Below are positions 1 to 43,698 of a DNA stretch of 64,000 nt, in pieces. The notes beneath the pieces were generated by a model. That model was not told where the DNA came from, made no database searches, and saw only the letters and a list, made by a program, of their open reading frames with translations. Both the position numbers and the translations under genes were made by a program. The first letter of the stretch is position 1, and the number at the start of each line of letters is the position of its first letter. Where the stretch lies: the IMG/VR virus record IMGVR_UViG_3300017714_002439; one strand, given 5' to 3'. This DNA comes from a virus.

Positions 1-6
1 TGTAGT

Positions 7-363
7 ATGAAAGGTGTTTTAGAAAAGCAGAGTAGAGATATGCCTGGTATTGTAGAACATAGATTTAATCAATTACAAGAAGTAGAAGCGATACTAGAAC
101 ACTTAAACACAGAAATGCGTAAATTACGTAGTCAAACATTTAGAAAGTTTTTAGAAAACTACAACAAGGCATTAAGTAGCCGTGATGCAGAAAAATATGT
201 AGACGGAGAAGCACCAGTTGTGGATTTACAATATCTCATTAACGAATTTAGTTTAGTGAGAAACAAATATATTGGTATAATCAAAGCATTAGAGGCCAAG
301 CAGTTTCAAATCAATAACGTAGTTAAACTACGTGCCGCAGGATTAGAAGATATATCACTCTGA
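7..363 (+). CDS. uvsY: UvsY-like recombination mediator (possibly 5'-truncated by window edge)
   Basis: Helical protein with C-terminal ...KALEAKQFQINNVVKLRAAG resembling UvsY of T4-like phages; frame open to window edge. Confidence 0.6.
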   Translation: MKGVLEKQSRDMPGIVEHRFNQLQEVEAILEHLNTEMRKLRSQTFRKFLENYNKALSSRDAEKYVDGEAPVVDLQYLINEFSLVRNKYIGIIKALEAKQFQINNVVKLRAAGLEDISL

Positions 364-411
364 TAAATAATACTGAGCACAATGATGTGTTACTAAACTC
401 AAGAGTAATAA

Positions 412-1116
412 ATGCCCTCACCATTTAAAAAACCCTGGCACTTCGATAAATTCAAAGAAGATAAAGAAGGCGACTATGTTAAAATAGTAGGGATATTAGC
501 AGGTGACTGGAAAGCAGAAATAGAACACGCTCGTAGCAAAGGTGTAACAAATCAAAACTACAACGAACAAAGATACGAGCATGCGGCTAATGTTAAAAGC
601 AAAGATCATGTTGTAGAAGATGCAGACAATCCAGATGGAAAGCCAGAAGCAACTATGTTTCGTAAAGTTAATTACGATAAGTTTCCAGGAGAGTTTCCAC
701 AGTTTACAAAGATTACAGACATGTTTTGTTTCAACACAGATGAGAAACTAACATGTAAATTTAACGATCAGTATCCAAATGATCAGCTAATGTGGCACAT
801 TGATAACTTACCCGGAAACCCACGCAAGGATAGAGTTATTGATAACCCAGAGTTTAAGTATCAGCATCCTGATAAGATACGTTTTTTAATTACATTAGAA
901 GATTGGGAGCCAGGACAGATATTTCAATTTGGTAATCGTGTATATACACAATGGAAAGCAGGAACAATATTTGCATGGGAATGGAGCACACTGCCGCATG
1001 TTACATGGAATGGTAGTTGGACTAAAAGACCTTGTTTGCAGATAACAGGAACAGCAACAGAAACAACATGGAATTTGGTTGCAAAAGGTAATAAAGAAAC
1101 TATATATAAAATTTAA
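412..1116 (+). CDS. 2OG-Fe(II) oxygenase-like (double-stranded beta-helix) protein
   Basis: HxD (WHID), distal His (LPHVTW), terminal R-x-x-L-Q-I-T-G strand. Confidence 0.55.
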   Translation: MPSPFKKPWHFDKFKEDKEGDYVKIVGILAGDWKAEIEHARSKGVTNQNYNEQRYEHAANVKSKDHVVEDADNPDGKPEATMFRKVNYDKFPGEFPQFTKITDMFCFNTDEKLTCKFNDQYPNDQLMWHIDNLPGNPRKDRVIDNPEFKYQHPDKIRFLITLEDWEPGQIFQFGNRVYTQWKAGTIFAWEWSTLPHVTWNGSWTKRPCLQITGTATETTWNLVAKGNKETIYKI

Positions 1117-1135
1117 AAAAAGTTTAAAAAAAAGG

Positions 1136-1164
1136 TTGACCTTTTGTTAAAAGTATTGTATATT
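1136..1164 (+). promoter_or_regulatory. sigma70-type promoter of the ncRNA
   Basis: TTGACC-N17-TATATT with TG extension and upstream A-tracts. Confidence 0.75.
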
Positions 1165-1171
1165 AATAAAC

Positions 1172-1388
1172 ATAAGCAACAAAGAGTTTAGCGGCTCAAT
1201 GTTTATAGTGCAAGGAAGAGGCGTTACCTAGGCGTCGAACTTGACTGCTCAGGGGTTATACCCAGGCTTTACCCGGAAAACGGAGGGAGTCACATTGCGG
1301 ATACGCAGGAGTAGGTGGTAGTGTAGTTAGAAAAGGTATCTAGATGTGCTACTTGGAGGTGCACCCCAGTCCTCCCTATTTTGCTTAT
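1172..1388 (+). ncRNA. Structured non-coding RNA of unknown family
   Basis: Own promoter and terminator; 91/180 GC in 1201-1380 (hand count); ATAAGCAA/TTGCTTAT terminal helix; several nested hairpins; only a 10-codon ORF. Confidence 0.7.
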
Positions 1389-1390
1389 TT

Positions 1391-1419
1391 AAAAACCCAG
1401 TTTTAGGACTGGGTTTTTT
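1391..1419 (+). terminator. Intrinsic terminator
   Basis: AAAAACCCAGT/ACTGGGTTTTT stem followed by T tract. Confidence 0.85.
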
Positions 1420-1434
1420 CTTGACTAAAAAAGG

Positions 1435-1463
1435 TTGACAAGTAAGACTTCTTACCGTATACT
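1435..1463 (+). promoter_or_regulatory. sigma70 promoter with palindromic spacer element
   Basis: TTGACA-N17-TATACT; GTAAGA-CT-TCTTAC in spacer. Confidence 0.85.
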
Positions 1464-1496
1464 GTTATTATAAAGTTTAATTAGCAGGAGAATACT

Positions 1497-2231
1497 ATGC
1501 CAGCAACACAAGTAAAAAATGATATAAGCAATTATACACCAGCTGAAATACTAGCTATCTCATTTGAGGTGTTTGATGCACAAGGTTTTGTTAAAAGTGG
1601 ATTTGGGTATAAAGAACCTACTAATACAGTAGACGAAGAAGGAAATCAAATTTACACTGATATTAAAGATAACAAAACAGTTATTCTTGAAACAGTAAAA
1701 AACTTTAATGGAAAATACATTCCTAATCAAAAATACGTAGATCAAGCAACAGCAGAAATTGAACGCATTAATGGTAAATTAATGATGAAGAAACTAAGTG
1801 GTGATCTTAGTAATTTTGAAGGTGGATTAGTTAAAGCATTAGAAGAAGATGTTAACAACTTCCATGTAAGTATTATTGCAAGTGTTCCAAATTCAGTTAA
1901 GATTGATAAGAAGCGTGAAGCACTAAATGACAGATTAATTCAACTAAAACATACCAGTCAATTTATAGGTAAAAAAGGTGTTCGTTACGATATAGATGTT
2001 GATGTAATTGATGTTAAATTTATTCAATCTAGCGATGTTTATATGATTACGTGTGTATCAGATAACAGAGATATTGTTAAGTTTTGGTGGAGAGAACAGC
2101 CAGATTTAACTGATATTATTGAAGGTAAAACAATATCAATTCGTGGAACAGTAAATAAGCAAGAAATCAGCAAATACAGTAACGCAAAAGAGACTCTTTT
2201 CAATAGAGTTAAGCTATCTAATATAAAATAA
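1497..2231 (+). CDS. Hypothetical protein with probable C-terminal OB fold
   Basis: AGGAG SD; C-terminal FIGKKG...ISIRGTV beta pattern. Confidence 0.5.
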   Translation: MPATQVKNDISNYTPAEILAISFEVFDAQGFVKSGFGYKEPTNTVDEEGNQIYTDIKDNKTVILETVKNFNGKYIPNQKYVDQATAEIERINGKLMMKKLSGDLSNFEGGLVKALEEDVNNFHVSIIASVPNSVKIDKKREALNDRLIQLKHTSQFIGKKGVRYDIDVDVIDVKFIQSSDVYMITCVSDNRDIVKFWWREQPDLTDIIEGKTISIRGTVNKQEISKYSNAKETLFNRVKLSNIK

Positions 2232-2288
2232 TTTCAAAAAAAAATGCTAAATGCTTGAAAAATAAGGGTTTTTTTCTTGCTGATTTAG

Positions 2289-2317
2289 TTGACAACCAAG
2301 ACATCTTGCTGTATAAT
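2289..2317 (+). promoter_or_regulatory. sigma70 promoter with palindromic spacer element
   Basis: TTGACA-N17-TATAAT; CAAGA-CA-TCTTG in spacer. Confidence 0.85.
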
Positions 2318-2350
2318 ATAACTATATTAACAATAAAAAAGGACGTAAAA

Positions 2351-2701
2351 ATGGCACAATTTAAACTATACCAAATACACTTAACAGATGCTGAAATTGA
2401 CTTAATTAATGCAGAAGGACATGATGCAGTTCATAAACAGTCTTTAAAATTAGATATGAATTTGCGTAAAACTGATACAGGTGCAGTTGCCAGCGATGCG
2501 TTTACTCGTGGGTATTACACACACGTATCAAACATTACTGCTGATGATCTTAATGGTGTATTTCATATAGGTAACATGGGTCCAGAAGAAAATATTGAGA
2601 GATTAGCTCCAATGTATTCATGTTCAGTAGGCGACATTATTGAAGACGAAGTAGGTAACAAACAAGTTGTTGCTAACTTTGGTTTTGCGGAAGTGGCGTA
2701 A
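2351..2701 (+). CDS. YodL-like hypothetical protein (start reassigned to ATG 2351)
   Basis: AAGGA SD before 2351; the longer ORF overlaps the promoter; SCSVGDII motif. Confidence 0.55.
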   Translation: MAQFKLYQIHLTDAEIDLINAEGHDAVHKQSLKLDMNLRKTDTGAVASDAFTRGYYTHVSNITADDLNGVFHIGNMGPEENIERLAPMYSCSVGDIIEDEVGNKQVVANFGFAEVA

Positions 2702-2709
2702 ATAAAAGG

Positions 2710-2738
2710 TTGACAAGTAAGAAGTCTTACTGTAATAT
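2710..2738 (+). promoter_or_regulatory. sigma70 promoter with palindromic spacer element
   Basis: TTGACA-N17-TAATAT; GTAAGA-AG-TCTTAC in spacer. Confidence 0.85.
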
Positions 2739-2773
2739 ATTAATATAAACTAAAAAACAGGAGTTTTTAATAA

Positions 2774-3640
2774 ATGACACAGATGCAATTAAAAAAAGTT
2801 CGTAAAAGTAAAAAAGGCGAAACAATTGTTGAAGTTCTTCCTAATAATGTGAAGGATAATCCAAACGAAACAGATGCACAAATTATTGAGCGTATGAGAG
2901 AACGTTTTAATATTTTAGACGATATGACACAAGCATCAATTGATGGTGTTGTTAGAGGTATGGTAGTAACAGGACCTCCAGGAGTTGGTAAGTCATTTGG
3001 TGTTGAACAAGTATTAGAAAAGAATAACTTGTTTGATAAAATTGCTGGTAACAAATTAAAGTTTGAAGTCATTAAAGGTGCCAGTTCTGCAATAGGATTA
3101 TATAAAGTATTGTATGATAATGCAGATAAAAATAGTGTCCTAGTTTTAGATGACTGTGATACAGTGTTGTATGATGAGACAAGTCTTAACTTGCTTAAAG
3201 CGGCACTTGACTCTTGTAAGAAAAGAAAACTAAGTTGGAACACAGATAGTGCATTACTAAGACGTGAAGGTATTCCAGATACTTTTGAATTTAAAGGTAG
3301 TGTTATCTTTATTACTAACCTTAAGTTTGATAATGTTAGAGGTAAGATTAAAGATCACTTAGCGGCAATCATGTCAAGATGTCATTACTTAGATCTTACA
3401 ATGGATACAATGCGTGAGAAAGTTCTAAGATGTAAGCAGATTGTTGCAGATGGTATGCTTAATGAATATCAGTTTACACAAGAAGAACAAGACGACTTAA
3501 TGAACTTTATGTTTGAGAACAAAGAAAAGATGAGAGAGATTAGTTTGAGAATGGTAACTAAACTTGCAGATCTTAAGAAAAGTTTTGGAACTGACAAGTG
3601 GAAAAGAACTGCAGAAGTCACATGTATGCGTAGAGTATAA
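2774..3640 (+). CDS. AAA+ ATPase
   Basis: Walker A GPPGVGKS, Walker B VLVLDDCD, sensor FITN, arginine finger SRC. Confidence 0.85.
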   Translation: MTQMQLKKVRKSKKGETIVEVLPNNVKDNPNETDAQIIERMRERFNILDDMTQASIDGVVRGMVVTGPPGVGKSFGVEQVLEKNNLFDKIAGNKLKFEVIKGASSAIGLYKVLYDNADKNSVLVLDDCDTVLYDETSLNLLKAALDSCKKRKLSWNTDSALLRREGIPDTFEFKGSVIFITNLKFDNVRGKIKDHLAAIMSRCHYLDLTMDTMREKVLRCKQIVADGMLNEYQFTQEEQDDLMNFMFENKEKMREISLRMVTKLADLKKSFGTDKWKRTAEVTCMRRV

Positions 3641-3661
3641 TAACAAAATACGATACATGGT

Positions 3662-3686
3662 AAAAGGCCCTTAACGGGCCTTTTTT
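3662..3686. terminator. Bidirectional intrinsic terminator between convergent genes
   Basis: AAAAGGCCC-TTAAC-GGGCCTTTTTT. Confidence 0.8.
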
Positions 3687-4801
3687 AATTGCTCTGCTAA
3701 TTCAGGATTGTAATCTTCCAGCCGTGTTCCATACATACGATCTGATATTTTTATTAAATCAATAAATTCCTGCCATTTCTTTGGATTATACTTTCTTTCT
3801 TGGCGTCCTTGAAAGTAACTTCGAACTTCAGGACAATCGTTTGATTCTAATATCCACGCTTCATACCAATCTGGTGCATGACAAACACTAAGATCACCTT
3901 CTCCCCAATTACTAAATGTTTCAAGTTCGTTTTGTTTGAACCACTGTATAGTATCAGTATAATTATTTAAATTAAGCAACGTAAATGTATTTAAAAATGT
4001 AAACCAATTAATATTGTCAAACGTAGATTTTATTGTGTTTGCATTTTCAATAATAGTTTCAAAGTTACTGCCCCATCGTTGATAATCGTTGTATTTGTAA
4101 ATTCCATCACAGCTAATTATAAAATTTAATTCTTTTACACTGTGCATTATATCTAGGGTTTCTCCCTTGGGTAAAATAGTAGCATTAGTATTATATAGTA
4201 GACTTAAATTCTGCTTGTTTGGAAACTTCTTTAAGAATGGTAAATGATGTTTTGATAACAACGGTTCACCACCAACAAACTTAATTTGTTCTACATGACT
4301 TAGATCAAATTCATCAAGTAAATCTGGGTCAAACACCCAGGTTGGATGCACATTCTTACCTAACAATTGATCTCGACGCCGTAATTTAGTTGAATTAAAA
4401 CTGCTACACATCTTGCATTCTAGGTTGCATGTGTTGTCTAGACTTACTTCAATATACTTTGTATGGAAGAATTCTTGTGTTAAACTTTCTCTGGCTATAT
4501 CGTATGAATCATTTGCACTTGTTCGCATTGACTTTCCGTGTATTTTGTCATCTTCATAACAGTTTATACATCCTTTAACAGGTATTCCTGCCAGCATCTC
4601 ACTTCTAATTTGACGGAATGCACTTTGATTCATGCGTTCAAGCAACTGTTTGCCATCTTCAATTTCACTGTCATCTTGTCGCATGTTATCCCATTCTTCT
4701 TGATTGAATTTACAACACGGACTTACACCACCGGTTTGTCCATCATAACTTGGATCTAACCGTAAATGCACCCAAGGAAGACTACAAAAATAATTATTCA
4801 T
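3671..4801 (-). CDS. Radical SAM protein with N-terminal SPASM/Twitch-like Cys motif
   Basis: CNLECKMC (CxxxCxxC), FVGGEPLL, N-terminal C...PCC...CxxC. Confidence 0.85.
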   Translation of the reverse strand: MNNYFCSLPWVHLRLDPSYDGQTGGVSPCCKFNQEEWDNMRQDDSEIEDGKQLLERMNQSAFRQIRSEMLAGIPVKGCINCYEDDKIHGKSMRTSANDSYDIARESLTQEFFHTKYIEVSLDNTCNLECKMCSSFNSTKLRRRDQLLGKNVHPTWVFDPDLLDEFDLSHVEQIKFVGGEPLLSKHHLPFLKKFPNKQNLSLLYNTNATILPKGETLDIMHSVKELNFIISCDGIYKYNDYQRWGSNFETIIENANTIKSTFDNINWFTFLNTFTLLNLNNYTDTIQWFKQNELETFSNWGEGDLSVCHAPDWYEAWILESNDCPEVRSYFQGRQERKYNPKKWQEFIDLIKISDRMYGTRLEDYNPELAEQLKKAR

Positions 4802-4806
4802 ACTAA

Positions 4807-4814
4807 TATTTATA
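4807..4814 (-). promoter_or_regulatory. T4-type late promoter, leaderless spacing
   Basis: TATAAATA-N5-ATG on minus strand, no SD. Confidence 0.65.
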
Positions 4815-4815
4815 A

Positions 4816-4821
4816 TAAATA
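4816..4821 (+). promoter_or_regulatory. Late promoter, leaderless spacing
   Basis: TAAATA-N5-ATG(4827), no SD. Confidence 0.6.
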
Positions 4822-4826
4822 TTATT

Positions 4827-5546
4827 ATGTCAAAAATAGCATTTATAGGTGATAGTTTTTCTGCATATAAACAAGCAGGTCAATTTGAAAATCATTGGTC
4901 ATGGAAATTAGCACAAAAATATCCACAACATACATATATAAATTATGCCACGGGCGGAATAGGGCATAACTATTATCAGTATGCTTTACTTGATGCAAAA
5001 ATGAATGGAGTAGATATTGTATTTGTTAGCAGAACATACAACCATCGTGTAGGCTTTCTTATTAATGATTATGAATTCAAATTTAATAAAGAAGCTCTAA
5101 CAGATAATTACACACTAGCATGTCTACAAGGTGACAGGTATGTATATTATTGTGGTTCTTCTGTATCTGGTGCTAAACATTTTTTACAAAGGTCATCAAC
5201 ATTTTTAAATTTAAGTAAATCTTTAAATCAGAAAATAGTAGATATATTACAGAATAAGAGTGTTTCGTTAACTAGTCAACAATACAATGATAAATGGTTT
5301 GATAACATAAAGGATTTATATAATTTTAAACACATAATACCATTAGAACTAATGAATATCACAGACGATAATGCTTTTAAACAAATGGCATCAGCACATG
5401 GTGTTGATAATTGTGAAATTGATGCTGACATGTTTAACTCTGGATTAATAGTATCTTTAACTGATAATCATTTGTCTCCCAAAGGTAATGATTGGGTTCT
5501 AGAAAATTATATTTTGACACTTGACACTATTAAGATACTAGAATAA
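4827..5546 (+). CDS. SGNH/GDSL-hydrolase-like protein
   Basis: N-terminal FIGDSF and C-terminal DNH (DxH) motifs. Confidence 0.6.
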   Translation: MSKIAFIGDSFSAYKQAGQFENHWSWKLAQKYPQHTYINYATGGIGHNYYQYALLDAKMNGVDIVFVSRTYNHRVGFLINDYEFKFNKEALTDNYTLACLQGDRYVYYCGSSVSGAKHFLQRSSTFLNLSKSLNQKIVDILQNKSVSLTSQQYNDKWFDNIKDLYNFKHIIPLELMNITDDNAFKQMASAHGVDNCEIDADMFNSGLIVSLTDNHLSPKGNDWVLENYILTLDTIKILE

Positions 5547-5549
5547 ATA
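5544..5549 (+). promoter_or_regulatory. Late promoter, leaderless spacing
   Basis: TAAATA-N5-ATG(5555), no SD. Confidence 0.6.
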
Positions 5550-5554
5550 TTAAC

Positions 5555-5887
5555 ATGGAATTTATAATTAAAGCAATCATAGGTGGACTAATCGTTGCAG
5601 GAGTTGTTACAGCGGCTCAGCGTGGAAACCCTACACTAGGCGCTTTAATACTTGGCATACCACTAGGTAGTGTTATCAGTCTTATCTTTATGTATTACTC
5701 AGGAGTTGATGTTAAAACATTTCAACAACTAGCACAAGAAACAGTTTATTTTGTTTTAGTTAGTTTGGTATTCTTTCCATTATTTGTTATTACATTAAAT
5801 CACTGGAATTTTTGGATGGCAATGTTAAGCTCTATTTCAGTAACAATGGTTGCATTATTATTCCTAAAACATTTCTTAGAAGGTTAA
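5555..5887 (+). CDS. Small 4-TM membrane protein (DUF3147-like)
   Basis: Four hydrophobic segments; KAIIGGLIV...GALILGIPLGS pattern. Confidence 0.55.
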   Translation: MEFIIKAIIGGLIVAGVVTAAQRGNPTLGALILGIPLGSVISLIFMYYSGVDVKTFQQLAQETVYFVLVSLVFFPLFVITLNHWNFWMAMLSSISVTMVALLFLKHFLEG

Positions 5888-5895
5888 TAGATCAA

Positions 5896-5924
5896 TTGAC
5901 AACTAAACTAAACTGTAGTATACT
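5896..5924 (+). promoter_or_regulatory. sigma70 promoter, leaderless spacing to uvsW
   Basis: TTGACA-N17-TATACT-N6-ATG, no SD. Confidence 0.8.
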
Positions 5925-5930
5925 TGTAGT

Positions 5931-7385
5931 ATGAATTGTGCAATAGTAATAAAAGATGAAGTAAATTGTAAAATTGAAGGTCTCGACTTAAACACTAGAA
6001 AAAAATGCGAGAAAGAACTAAAGTTCTTTATGCCATATGCATTTCATGTGCCAGCATATAAGTTAGGTAGATGGGATGGGTGTGTAAGTTTTTTCAGTGT
6101 TGGTGGTGTTACTTATGTTAATCTACTTGATAGAGTCTTGCCCATTATTATGGATGCTGGATATCAAATCACAGTAGACGATAAGCGACAACAAAATGAA
6201 TCATTTGATTTTGCGGCTGTAGATGAATCTACATTTGCACATAAAGTTTGGCCAGATAATCATCAATTAGCAGGCGAGCCAGTTGTGCTTAGAGATTATC
6301 AGATTACTATTGTTAATAAATATTTAACCACACCACAATGTTTGCAAGAAATTGCCACAGGTGCAGGTAAGACACTTATCACAGCTGCTCTATCCGAACG
6401 TGTAGAAAAGTATGGAAGATCAATTGTTATTGTCCCAAACAAAGATTTGGTAAGGCAGACATTTGATGATTATGAAAACTTAGGACTTGACGTTGGAGTT
6501 TATTTTGGCGACAAAAAAGATATAGGACGCACCCATACAATATGCACATGGCAAAGTTTAAATAGTATCAAGAAAAGATTCAGAGATGGTCTAGACGATA
6601 TGAGTTTAAGAGAGTTTTCAGATGGAGTAGTTTGTGTTATTGTAGACGAAGTCCATCAAGCAAAAGCAGATGTTTTAAAAGACATGCTTACTAAGGAATT
6701 TGCACATATTCCTTTACGTTGGGGACTTACTGGAACTATACCAAAAGAAGATCATGCTAAAGCAAGTTTACAAGCATGTCTTGGAGAAGTTACAAATAAA
6801 TTAAGTGCAAGCGAATTACAAGACATGGGAGTTTTAAGTAACTGTCACGTTAATGTAGTTCAACTAAAAGAAACGGCGGTATACAATAATTATCAAAGTG
6901 AGTTAACTTACTTAACTACAGATAAAGAACGTATGAAGTATCTCAGTAGTTTTATTCAAACAGTTGCTGAAACAGGTAATACACTTGTATTAGTAGATAG
7001 AATTAAAGCAGGAGAAATAATTGCAGAAAATATACCAGATGTTACTTTTGTTAAAGGTGCTATGAAAGTCACCGACAGAAAGGACGCATATGATGAGATT
7101 AATGAAGCAACTAATAGCATCACTGTCGCAACCTACGGTGTGGCTGCCGTTGGTATTAATATTCCACGTATATTTAACCTTATACTTCTTGAACCTGGGA
7201 AGTCGTTTGTTAGAGTTATCCAGTCAATAGGACGTGGAGTTCGTAAAGCCGAAGATAAAGATTTTGTTCAAATTTGGGATGTGACAAGCACAGCCAAGTT
7301 CAGCAAAAAGCATCTTACAGAACGTAAGAAATTTTACAAAGAAGCTAATTATCCTTTTACTATTGAGAAGACTGATTGGCGTTAA
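5931..7385 (+). CDS. uvsW: UvsW-like SF2 DNA helicase
   Basis: LRDYQ Q-motif, ATGAGKT, DEVH, LTGT, QSIGRGVR. Confidence 0.9.
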   Translation: MNCAIVIKDEVNCKIEGLDLNTRKKCEKELKFFMPYAFHVPAYKLGRWDGCVSFFSVGGVTYVNLLDRVLPIIMDAGYQITVDDKRQQNESFDFAAVDESTFAHKVWPDNHQLAGEPVVLRDYQITIVNKYLTTPQCLQEIATGAGKTLITAALSERVEKYGRSIVIVPNKDLVRQTFDDYENLGLDVGVYFGDKKDIGRTHTICTWQSLNSIKKRFRDGLDDMSLREFSDGVVCVIVDEVHQAKADVLKDMLTKEFAHIPLRWGLTGTIPKEDHAKASLQACLGEVTNKLSASELQDMGVLSNCHVNVVQLKETAVYNNYQSELTYLTTDKERMKYLSSFIQTVAETGNTLVLVDRIKAGEIIAENIPDVTFVKGAMKVTDRKDAYDEINEATNSITVATYGVAAVGINIPRIFNLILLEPGKSFVRVIQSIGRGVRKAEDKDFVQIWDVTSTAKFSKKHLTERKKFYKEANYPFTIEKTDWR

Positions 7386-7398
7386 GAGAGAAATATAA

Positions 7399-7899
7399 AT
7401 GAAAATATTAACCGTAGAAAACAAGACCTACGATTTGGATGAGATACCCGAGACTATTGACGATTTAAGATATGGTATTCTTGATTATACAAATCCAAGC
7501 AACGTAGATTATTATTTTATTCCACTAGTGTTTTTAGAAAGCTTCTATGCACCAGCGGCAATATTACAAATTGGACAAGTAACTATTAGCATGCCACTTG
7601 ATTGGCATATTGTTATATGTGATTCAGAAGTAGGCGATCCAGAGGTGATGAGTCTTATGAGTCTAAACGATAGAGGATTTACAGCATTTGCATTTAATCC
7701 AATTACAGGATTTAAACCAGAATATGTAGATATTTCAATTGTAAACATATACAGTGATGTTAAATGGTATGCACCTAAACTAAAATATGGACACCTATTA
7801 TGTGTTCCATTAAGCGACAAACCAAATTCGCCTTGTGTATTATTTGTTAAAGATGCAAACAAGTTACCAGAAGTGCTTGACATTGCAGAGCTTTGGTAG
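7399..7899 (+). CDS. Hypothetical protein
   Basis: Intact ORF in operon, GAGAG SD-like. Confidence 0.7.
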   Translation: MKILTVENKTYDLDEIPETIDDLRYGILDYTNPSNVDYYFIPLVFLESFYAPAAILQIGQVTISMPLDWHIVICDSEVGDPEVMSLMSLNDRGFTAFAFNPITGFKPEYVDISIVNIYSDVKWYAPKLKYGHLLCVPLSDKPNSPCVLFVKDANKLPEVLDIAELW

Positions 7900-7905
7900 T
7901 ATAGT

Positions 7906-8019
7906 ATGTATTGGGCATGGTATAGCAAATTAAGAAAACAAGGATATCCTTGGTGGAATTGTTTGTTATGGGCTCGATATAATAATAAGCATTACGACAT
8001 AGATGGAAATTATAAATGA
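7906..8019 (+). CDS. Possible 37-aa Trp/Tyr-rich small protein (not in ORF track)
   Basis: MYWAWYSKLRKQGYPWWNCLLWARYNNKHYDIDGNYK fills the gap; stop overlaps the next ATG (ATGA). Confidence 0.35.
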   Translation: MYWAWYSKLRKQGYPWWNCLLWARYNNKHYDIDGNYK

Positions 8020-32279: not shown

Positions 32280-32355
32280 GCCGGTTTAGCTCAGTTGGTA
32301 GAGCAACTGATTTGTAATCAGTAGGTCCGCAGTTCGAATCTGTGAATCGGCACCA
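32280..32355 (+). tRNA. tRNA-Thr(UGU)
   Basis: Full cloverleaf, GCCGGTT/AATCGGC acceptor, TGT anticodon, encoded CCA. Confidence 0.95.
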
Positions 32356-32467: not shown

Positions 32468-32543
32468 GGGGGATTAGCTCAGATGGGAGAGCGCCTGATT
32501 TGCATTCAGGAGGTCGTCAGTTCGATCCTGATATCCTCCACCA
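32468..32543 (+). tRNA. tRNA-Ala(UGC)
   Basis: Full cloverleaf, GGGGGAT/ATCCTCC acceptor with G3:U70, TGC anticodon, encoded CCA. Confidence 0.95.
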
Positions 32544-43655: not shown

Positions 43656-43698
43656 ATTATATAATAAGGTTGACAATTTGTCAAGATCTACTTATAAT
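43656..43698. promoter_or_regulatory. Interlocked divergent consensus sigma70 promoters
   Basis: TTGACA-N17-TATAAT on both strands around the TTGACAATTTGTCAA palindrome. Confidence 0.85.

Follow-up and report, generated by a model that had tools for sequence, protein, structure and literature searches.

The manA RNA motif (RF01745) was described by Weinberg et al. (2010; PMC2864571), was updated in Rfam 14.3 (PMC7779021) and is catalogued there as cis-regulatory; it has been a riboswitch candidate since 2010 (PMC2864571). A recent preprint reports cryo-EM structures of five manA RNAs, in which a kissing loop formed between loop L5 of one molecule and loop L7 of another (L5-L7') builds pentamers in vitro, and these pentamers close into decamers or into a 60-mer cage about 430 Å across (bioRxiv 10.64898/2026.07.01.735769). 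In four solved manA RNAs the L5-L7' contact joins neighbouring subunits, second contacts are of the L8-L9' or the L3-L8' kind, and L5/L7 read UGGU/ACCA in the solved A0F1 RNA and UGU/ACA in those from Photobacterium (10.64898/2026.07.01.735769). RNA-only multimers known earlier came from long transcripts (10.64898/2026.07.01.735769). Here we describe an RNA gene encoded in a stretch of 64,000 nucleotides of viral DNA (IMG/VR record IMGVR_UViG_3300017714_002439), which as a whole is called the window in the following. This is a real folded-RNA gene of an uncultured marine T4-like phage, and it does not define a new family but is a free-standing manA variant with a re-coded kissing-loop pair.

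Family membership and relatives

Positions 1172-1388 on the plus strand of the window almost certainly encode a divergent member of the manA family, although direct searches with this copy gave a misleading picture. RF01745 produced no match at E≤10, either to a segment of 471 bases (1050-1520) or to one of 241 bases (1160-1400), Rfam as a whole gave none on this copy at gathering level, and RF01745 also failed on the records that contain identical or 99% identical copies. The other Rfam families at E≤10 yielded just terminator look-alikes, and models for tRNA, tmRNA, RNase P, SRP, 6S and Y RNA did not match this copy (Rfam at E≤10, ARAGORN). The new-family reading first suggested by these empty searches was rejected when relatives of the RNA turned out to match RF01745. 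Two further readings were also discarded: an RNase P-like RNA, suggested by AGUGCAA and GGAAG strings and by the cruciform of helices P4-P7, for which there was neither a model match nor a P4-type pseudoknot, and a tRNA-like or Y-RNA-like cloverleaf formed by P4-P7, whose L7 is no T-loop and which matched no model, leaving a geometric analogy only.

Since RF01745 fails on this copy, membership is visible only through the relatives. In a blastn comparison with cultured phages, the one real match lay in Pelagibacter phage Mosig, in an intergenic segment that carries no annotation (72.4% identity over 236 nt, E=2e-16); it is also the sole DNA-level similarity of window positions 1-8000 to the Mosig genome. 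A 16-mer common to the window (1207-1222) and the Mosig copy served as search key and was found in at least 120 IMG/VR contigs; among the matches listed, 100 could be extracted with enough flanking sequence, and 95 of these were clear homologs. From the matches listed, 69 distinct IMG/VR homologs were aligned (alignment A2). All 11 relatives tested from this alignment match RF01745 across positions 1-192 of the 192-position model, and five exceed its gathering score of 55.2 bits, namely Mosig (64.0 bits, positions 1-192 of 192), L009 (61.9), L004 (57.9), L065 (57.7) and L016 (57.5), with the remaining six scoring 45-54 bits; L104 and L055, which are closely related on the 5' side of the RNA, reach about 51 bits. 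The Rfam check proposed in the first-pass annotation therefore came out negative for this copy and positive for five of its relatives. Furthermore, an nhmmer profile of 67 relatives, built without window-type copies, matched the window at 1169-1394 with E=1.8e-44 and nowhere else in the 64 kb.

Via the relatives, the structure line of RF01745 maps one-to-one onto the helices found here, and the window contains every element of the manA consensus architecture in unchanged order, from the 5' hairpin and the closing helix through P3 (with its internal loop) and the P4-P5-P6-P7 four-way junction to P8 and P9. The helix numbering of the preprint agrees with ours for P3a/b, the P4-P7 four-way junction (given in its supplement), P8 and P9 (10.64898/2026.07.01.735769). 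The consensus loops L5 GUGGUG and L7 ACCA are not present in the window, which reads GUUAUA and GAUA at these places, and RF01745 probably misses this copy because L5 and L7 diverge and P3 and P7 are shorter. The first-pass annotation had implied an unknown family and had held that a match to a known one removes novelty; as the RNA belongs to manA, most of the novelty is gone by that measure. As a sizeable marine-phage subfamily escapes RF01745 partly or wholly, manA RNAs are undercounted.

Secondary structure and loop covariation

The structure derived with RNAalifold plus manual extension comprises 59 pairs in 11 helices (Table 1). In alignment A2, 96.5% of the cells hold standard pairs, against at most 51% in slid-partner controls, both-side changes occur in 39 of the 59 pairs among the 69 homologs, and none of 500 shuffles equalled the real structure on any measure. 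For a single sequence, the folding energy corresponded to z=-0.91 when the core was folded by itself and to z=-2.26 when the terminator was included, with a similar value for the minus strand (-2.36). Thermodynamics alone is weak here, and the proof of a folded RNA is comparative. The strand was assigned from conserved G-U pairs, which fit the plus strand only (GU in 69 of 69 rows at columns 103/127 and in 63 of 69 at columns 56/72); a minus-strand RNA was rejected because these pairs, the promoter and the terminator suit the plus strand only.

Table 1. Features of the RNA locus and of its surroundings in the window
Feature	Position	Strand	Remarks
Sigma-70-type promoter	1136-1164	+	TTGACC 1136-1141, 17-base spacer, TATATT 1159-1164; score 10/12
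RNA core	1172-1388	+	about 217 bases
P0 terminal clamp	1172-1179 (AUAAGCAA) / 1381-1388 (UUGCUUAU)	+	both-side changes in 3/4 counted pairs
P1 hairpin	1178-1203	+	both-side changes in 6/7 pairs; in relatives aligned to model positions 1-22
P2 closing helix	AUAG 1205-1208 / CUAU 1376-1379	+	corresponds to Rfam closing helix
P3 arm	1211-1243	+	P3a, internal loop, P3b, loop L3
P3a CAAG/CUUG	1211-1214 / 1240-1243	+	invariant, so no covariation to support it; GAAGA/GAA internal loop next to it
P3b	1220-1223 / 1233-1236	+	co-varies; loop L3 holds UACCU 1225-1229
Four-way-junction domain P4-P7	1244-1316	+	covariation in A2
P4	1244-1250 / 1309-1316	+	G1315 bulged; 6/7 pairs changed on both sides
P5	1252-1254 / 1261-1263	+	L5 GUUAUA 1255-1260
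P6	1265-1275 / 1281-1291	+	GAAAA loop; 8/11 pairs changed on both sides
J6/7 ACAU	1292-1295	+	between P6 and P7
P7	1296-1299 / 1304-1307	+	L7 GAUA 1300-1303; 5/5 pairs changed on both sides
P8 long hairpin	1318-1352	+	4/4 basal pairs changed on both sides; inner stem from single-sequence fold
P9 hairpin GGAGG/CCUCC	1355-1359 / 1371-1375	+	11-base loop L9
Intrinsic terminator	1391-1419	+	A-run, GC-containing stem, 4-base loop in fold, U-run
Consensus promoter of next gene	1435-1463	+	TTGACA-17-TATACT, 11/12; context, outside the RNA
Next gene downstream	1497-2231		preceded by promoter 1435-1463
Radical SAM domain protein	3671-4801	-	376 aa; near early-gene cluster
tRNA-Thr(UGU)	32280-32355	+	
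tRNA-Ala(UGC)	32468-32543	+	

In the Rfam manA consensus, which has no P0 clamp, P1 is the first hairpin, and the bases 1178-1179 may alternatively extend P0. The outer pair of P2 is AU in 64 members of the alignment, GC in two, and CG, UA and GU in one each, and P9 alternates across the family between GGAGG/CCUCC, GUAGG/CCUAC and GUGGG/CCCAC. One pair of P3b had looked invariant because homologs were sampled by the 16-mer; in L125:357-372(-), where the last base of the 16-mer is G instead of C, the P3b partner is C instead of G, which is a both-side change. A reading of the P3 internal loop, GAAGA/GAA, as a K-turn or loop E was set aside; the non-bulged strand is one base too long for standard K-turn geometry. 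Additional long-range pairs did not emerge from a mutual-information scan of the alignment, as conservation of the loops is too high for this, and a pairing of AACC in L9 with GGUU (alignment positions 153-156) was dismissed as unsupported, as it conflicts with the co-varying pair 81-155.

Six of the nine pairings that the first-pass annotation had found by hand hold: 1172-1179 with 1381-1388 (P0), GAGT/GCTC at 1184-1197 (P1), the GGGT/ACCC hairpin, which is part of the 59-pair structure, the CCG/CGG tip of P6 with its GAAAA loop, TGCG/CGCA at 1296-1307 (P7), and GTAGTG/TGCTAC at 1318-1323/1347-1352 (base of P8). The other three fail on covariation. TACCTA 1225-1230 was thought to pair with TAGGTG 1312-1317; the former lies in a loop and the partner of 1309-1316 is 1244-1250. 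The columns of TGACT 1242-1246 and AGTCA 1288-1292 co-vary with different partners, and the two sides of the suspected switch or pseudoknot, AGGGAG 1284-1289 and CTCCCT 1372-1377, sit in the separately co-varying helices P6 and P9.

Clearly, loops L5 and L7 change together. They co-vary at three positions, with the combinations GGU/ACC, UGU/ACA and UGC/GCA, and with UAU/AUA in this copy, where UAU within 1255-1260 is complementary to AUA within 1300-1303 through three A-U pairs only. Across the family, L5 and L7 are paired in 130 of 138 cells, a value reached by none of 10,000 shuffles. The UAU/AUA combination recurs in L125, whose RNA, outside the loops, is 82% identical to a clade with UGU/ACA and only 62% to the window; as L125 belongs to a different clade, the switch to UAU/AUA arose at least twice. 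Loop L8 (AAAGGUA, 1332-1338) includes AGGUA, which is complementary to UACCU in L3. For this L3-L8 pair the ACC/GGU core is invariant, the window has one compensated change (ACCU/AGGU), and Mosig-type and other copies show uncompensated ones. L5 and L7, the loops that join molecules in the solved structures, thus show natural covariation that comprises at least four codes, and switches between codes occurred independently. To our knowledge, there has been no earlier comparative support for the L5-L7' contact mattering in vivo.

Expression signals and genomic setting

The expression signals that had been read from the sequence in the first-pass annotation were recovered. The promoter is present with TTGACC-17-TATATT, and transcription is predicted to start at about 1171-1172, leaving 7-8 bases between the end of the -10 box and P0. 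The GC island was confirmed, with 91 of 180 bases across 1201-1380 being G or C, compared with a fraction of 0.34 in the whole window. The terminator folds as a hairpin with 12 pairs between its A-run and its U-run and begins three bases 3' of P0; it had escaped a simple terminator scan, as its stem reaches into the T-run. As had been claimed, the region 1136-1419 contains no real ORF, all overlapping ORFs being at most 30 aa long; a coding reading was rejected for this reason and also because alignment indels are not multiples of three and substitutions track base pairs. The reported lack of tRNA, tmRNA, RNase P, SRP and 6S hallmarks likewise stood, with no ARAGORN or Rfam match at the locus and the tRNA calls of ARAGORN in the window falling only at 32 kb.

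An extended promoter motif, AAGGTTGAC-N15-19-TATAHT, occurs three times in the window (1132-1164, 1431-1463 and 43666-43698), where the chance expectation is none. The AAAAAGGTTGAC lead-in is also found upstream of manA in many related contigs, and the extended motif is probably an early-promoter signature of this phage group.

A private promoter and a strong terminator, together with a separate promoter for the next gene, favour a free RNA product over a leader. Judging from these sequence signals, the RNA is likely to form a separate transcription unit and to be itself the product, not the leader of the downstream gene, which fits the earlier description of an independently expressed multi-junction RNA. 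Host RNA polymerase would start at the promoter at 1136-1164 and stop at the terminator at 1391-1419, giving a unit of about 248 nt. Of the 83 distinct family copies among the matches listed, 72 have a promoter of the form TTGACN-N16-18-TANANT, the end of which lies 6-8 bases upstream of the first helix, and 52 have a strict terminator within 80 bases. The stem sequences of these terminators are unrelated even between the closest copies, such as the window and the 99% identical G001. In about one third of the copies there is no terminator and the RNA directly precedes a gene, the product of which is a peroxiredoxin, a rubrerythrin or a gp32-like SSB. That most copies of the subfamily have a private promoter and terminator and occupy variable genome positions favours the RNA itself as the product.

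In the window, which carries UvsY-like and UvsW-like genes and thus presents a T4-like phage setting, the RNA lies downstream of the UvsY-like gene and one unknown ORF. It is located directly 3' of a UvsY-like gene in L003 and directly 3' of the major head gene in L011, L024 and L134, the last of which has a window-type copy. When 185,579 prokaryote species were searched (one genome each), the signature was found only in two contigs of one marine metagenome-assembled genome (MAG) of Candidatus Neomarinimicrobiota, PBPT01000082.1 (L143; 153 kb) and PBPT01000016.1 (L144; 335 kb). Both contain identical manA genes just 3' of a 391-aa ORF that matches the L011 and L024 major head genes in size; as a head-gene-sized ORF adjoins the RNA, both are probably T4-like phage contigs that were mis-binned into the MAG. 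The two contigs may share duplicated sequence.

For the window segments 2774-3640 and 5939-7883, the nearest cultured-phage relatives were PA5oct-like Pseudomonas jumbo phages and Agrobacterium phage Atu_ph07, with 48% amino acid identity to the PA5oct-like relative for a 288-aa protein, and in no case was a pelagiphage or cyanophage the nearest. With nearest relatives so distant, the manA RNA is common to distant branches of T4-like phages. In related contigs, other structured RNAs neighbour manA at distances of at most a few hundred bases, and manA forms small clusters with freshwater-2 RNA (RF02980; 73-79 bits) and glutamine riboswitch aptamers (47-58 bits) at L004:1882-1970(-) and 2812-2861(-), L009:1573-1622(-), L017:954-1040 and L081:934-1020. 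Neither freshwater-2 RNA nor the glutamine riboswitch was found in the window at gathering level.

Possible roles and comparison with known RNAs

Taken together, the data are best explained by a free-standing manA RNA that forms its own transcription unit and may self-assemble, an interpretation that we consider likely. The RNA folds into the P0 clamp, the P1 hairpin and the P2 closing helix, with arms P3, P8 and P9 and the inner P4-P7 junction, and complementarity of L5 and L7 has been maintained in evolution via both-side changes. As the most likely mechanism, copies of the RNA would associate during infection via their own UAU/AUA code and build a closed RNA particle. For this last step, which is drawn by analogy with the solved manA RNAs, we see about even chances. 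The guess of a scaffold in the first-pass annotation fits the in vitro behaviour of the family in the 2026 preprint. Against assembly, covariation of L5 and L7 on its own fits a contact between molecules and a contact within one molecule equally well, the kissing duplex would comprise just three A-U pairs, and cage formation was reported in vitro only, at high RNA and Mg concentrations, in one preprint and for other subtypes (10.64898/2026.07.01.735769).

More tentatively, L5-L7 might be a changeable assembly code, in which this group switched from GGU/ACC to UAU/AUA and, for L3-L8, probably to UACCU/AGGUA. The RNA could then assemble only with itself, excluding manA RNAs of co-infecting phages, and form a functional phage-made particle, for example for sequestering or scaffolding. 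If this were true, manA would be a family of trans-acting RNA genes and not of riboswitches.

The strongest competitor, though an unlikely one, is a monomeric structured RNA in which L5 and L7 touch within the molecule like the D and T loops of tRNA, the compact fold binds a protein or a small ligand, and the oligomers are a test-tube effect. P4-P7 indeed resemble a cloverleaf, with a P4 of seven pairs, a short P5, a long P6, a J6/7 of four bases and a P7 of four to five pairs, and P5 and P7 are placed like the tRNA D and T arms, whose loops touch intramolecularly. The L5-L7 covariation suits such a contact no less than an intermolecular one, and the cages were made at about 3 mg/mL RNA with 10 mM Mg (10.64898/2026.07.01.735769). 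However, L5-L7' lies between neighbouring subunits in four solved manA RNAs, and the highly conserved, exposed and mutually complementary loops L3, L8 and L9 suit multivalent self-contacts.

Considerably less probable still is a cis-acting riboswitch or leader. On this reading, ligand sensing by the manA fold would determine whether transcription passes the terminator at 1391-1419 and continues into the gene at 1497-2231. Such a role would accord with the Rfam label 'Cis-reg', with the work of Weinberg et al. (2010; PMC2864571), who found most manA RNAs in potential 5' UTRs, and with those subfamily copies, about one third, that have no terminator and abut a gene. In the window, the 3' half of the terminator, AGGACUGGG (1405-1413), is complementary to CCCAGUCCU (1365-1373) in L9/P9, which suggests a possible anti-terminator. 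However, a promoter scoring 11/12 is located between terminator and gene, the terminator overlaps neither P0 nor P2, terminator sequences are unrelated between copies, with stems outside P0 and no conserved expression platform, and downstream genes vary between phages. In addition, the 99% identical RNA of G001 has a different terminator that does not show the complementarity. The complementarity itself is perfect, covers the terminator loop and 3' strand and is longer than the GC core of the terminator. As it is missing in the G001 copy, it is probably due to chance; a role as a local anti-terminator in this phage could be envisaged.

We attach very little weight to a trans-acting base-pairing RNA or decoy that would capture host RNAs, for example tRNA 3' ends, with its conserved loops of the UGGU and ACCA types. 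L5 contains GGGUGGUACC in most copies, which we take to resemble a T-box sequence, and UGGUA is found in L8 as well. In T-boxes, a UGGN bulge binds tRNA 3' ends. However, L5 of this copy reads UUAUA and L7 has changed in step; because the two loops change together, the partner of L5 is L7 and not an invariant host target, and a T-box-like UGGN loop was rejected on these grounds. Nothing was found in support of the earlier guesses of a ribozyme or a decoy.

With regard to known RNA particles, ROOL, GOLLD and OLE are phage-associated or bacterial non-coding RNAs that form homo-oligomeric closed particles via loop-loop contacts, as seen by cryo-EM in 2024-2025. They differ from the window RNA in that sequence and fold are unrelated and that they are several times longer, and none of the three matched it in Rfam searches.

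The free-standing manA RNA of the window shares with the classic manA RNAs of cyanophages and other marine sources the helix order, an AGUG that follows the closing helix, an L6 of the GNRA type, complementary loops L5 and L7, and the occurrence in marine T4-like phages. In contrast, classic L5/L7 are GUGGUG/ACCA where the window has UUAUA/GAUA, the closing helix is GGGAG/CUCCC instead of AUAG/CUAU, the enclosing P0 clamp is an extra element of the window RNA, and a position in 5' UTRs is replaced by an own promoter and terminator. The nearest copy in a cultured phage is that of Mosig EXVC030M (MT647606, 108156-108393, unannotated; 72% identity), which has the P0 clamp, the 16-mer and the promoter type in common with the window. 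However, the Mosig copy has no terminator, a rubrerythrin gene begins 15 bases 3' of its RNA, its L5/L7 are GGUA/UACC, and the phage is otherwise unrelated to the window at the DNA level.

Finally, the Photobacterium RNAs pho_A28C and pho34_A767, which were solved as decamers by cryo-EM (10.64898/2026.07.01.735769), have ACAU in J6/7 like the window, a four-base L7 of the GACA type, an L5 reading UUGUG as in part of the window subfamily, and a P9 of the GUAGG...CCUAC type. They reside in a bacterial host genome, their closing helix and P8 are different, and they do not have P0. For both of them L5-L7' and L3-L8' kissing contacts were reported, which the window RNA matches by complementarity alone, with UAU/AUA in the first case and UACCU/AGGUA in the second.
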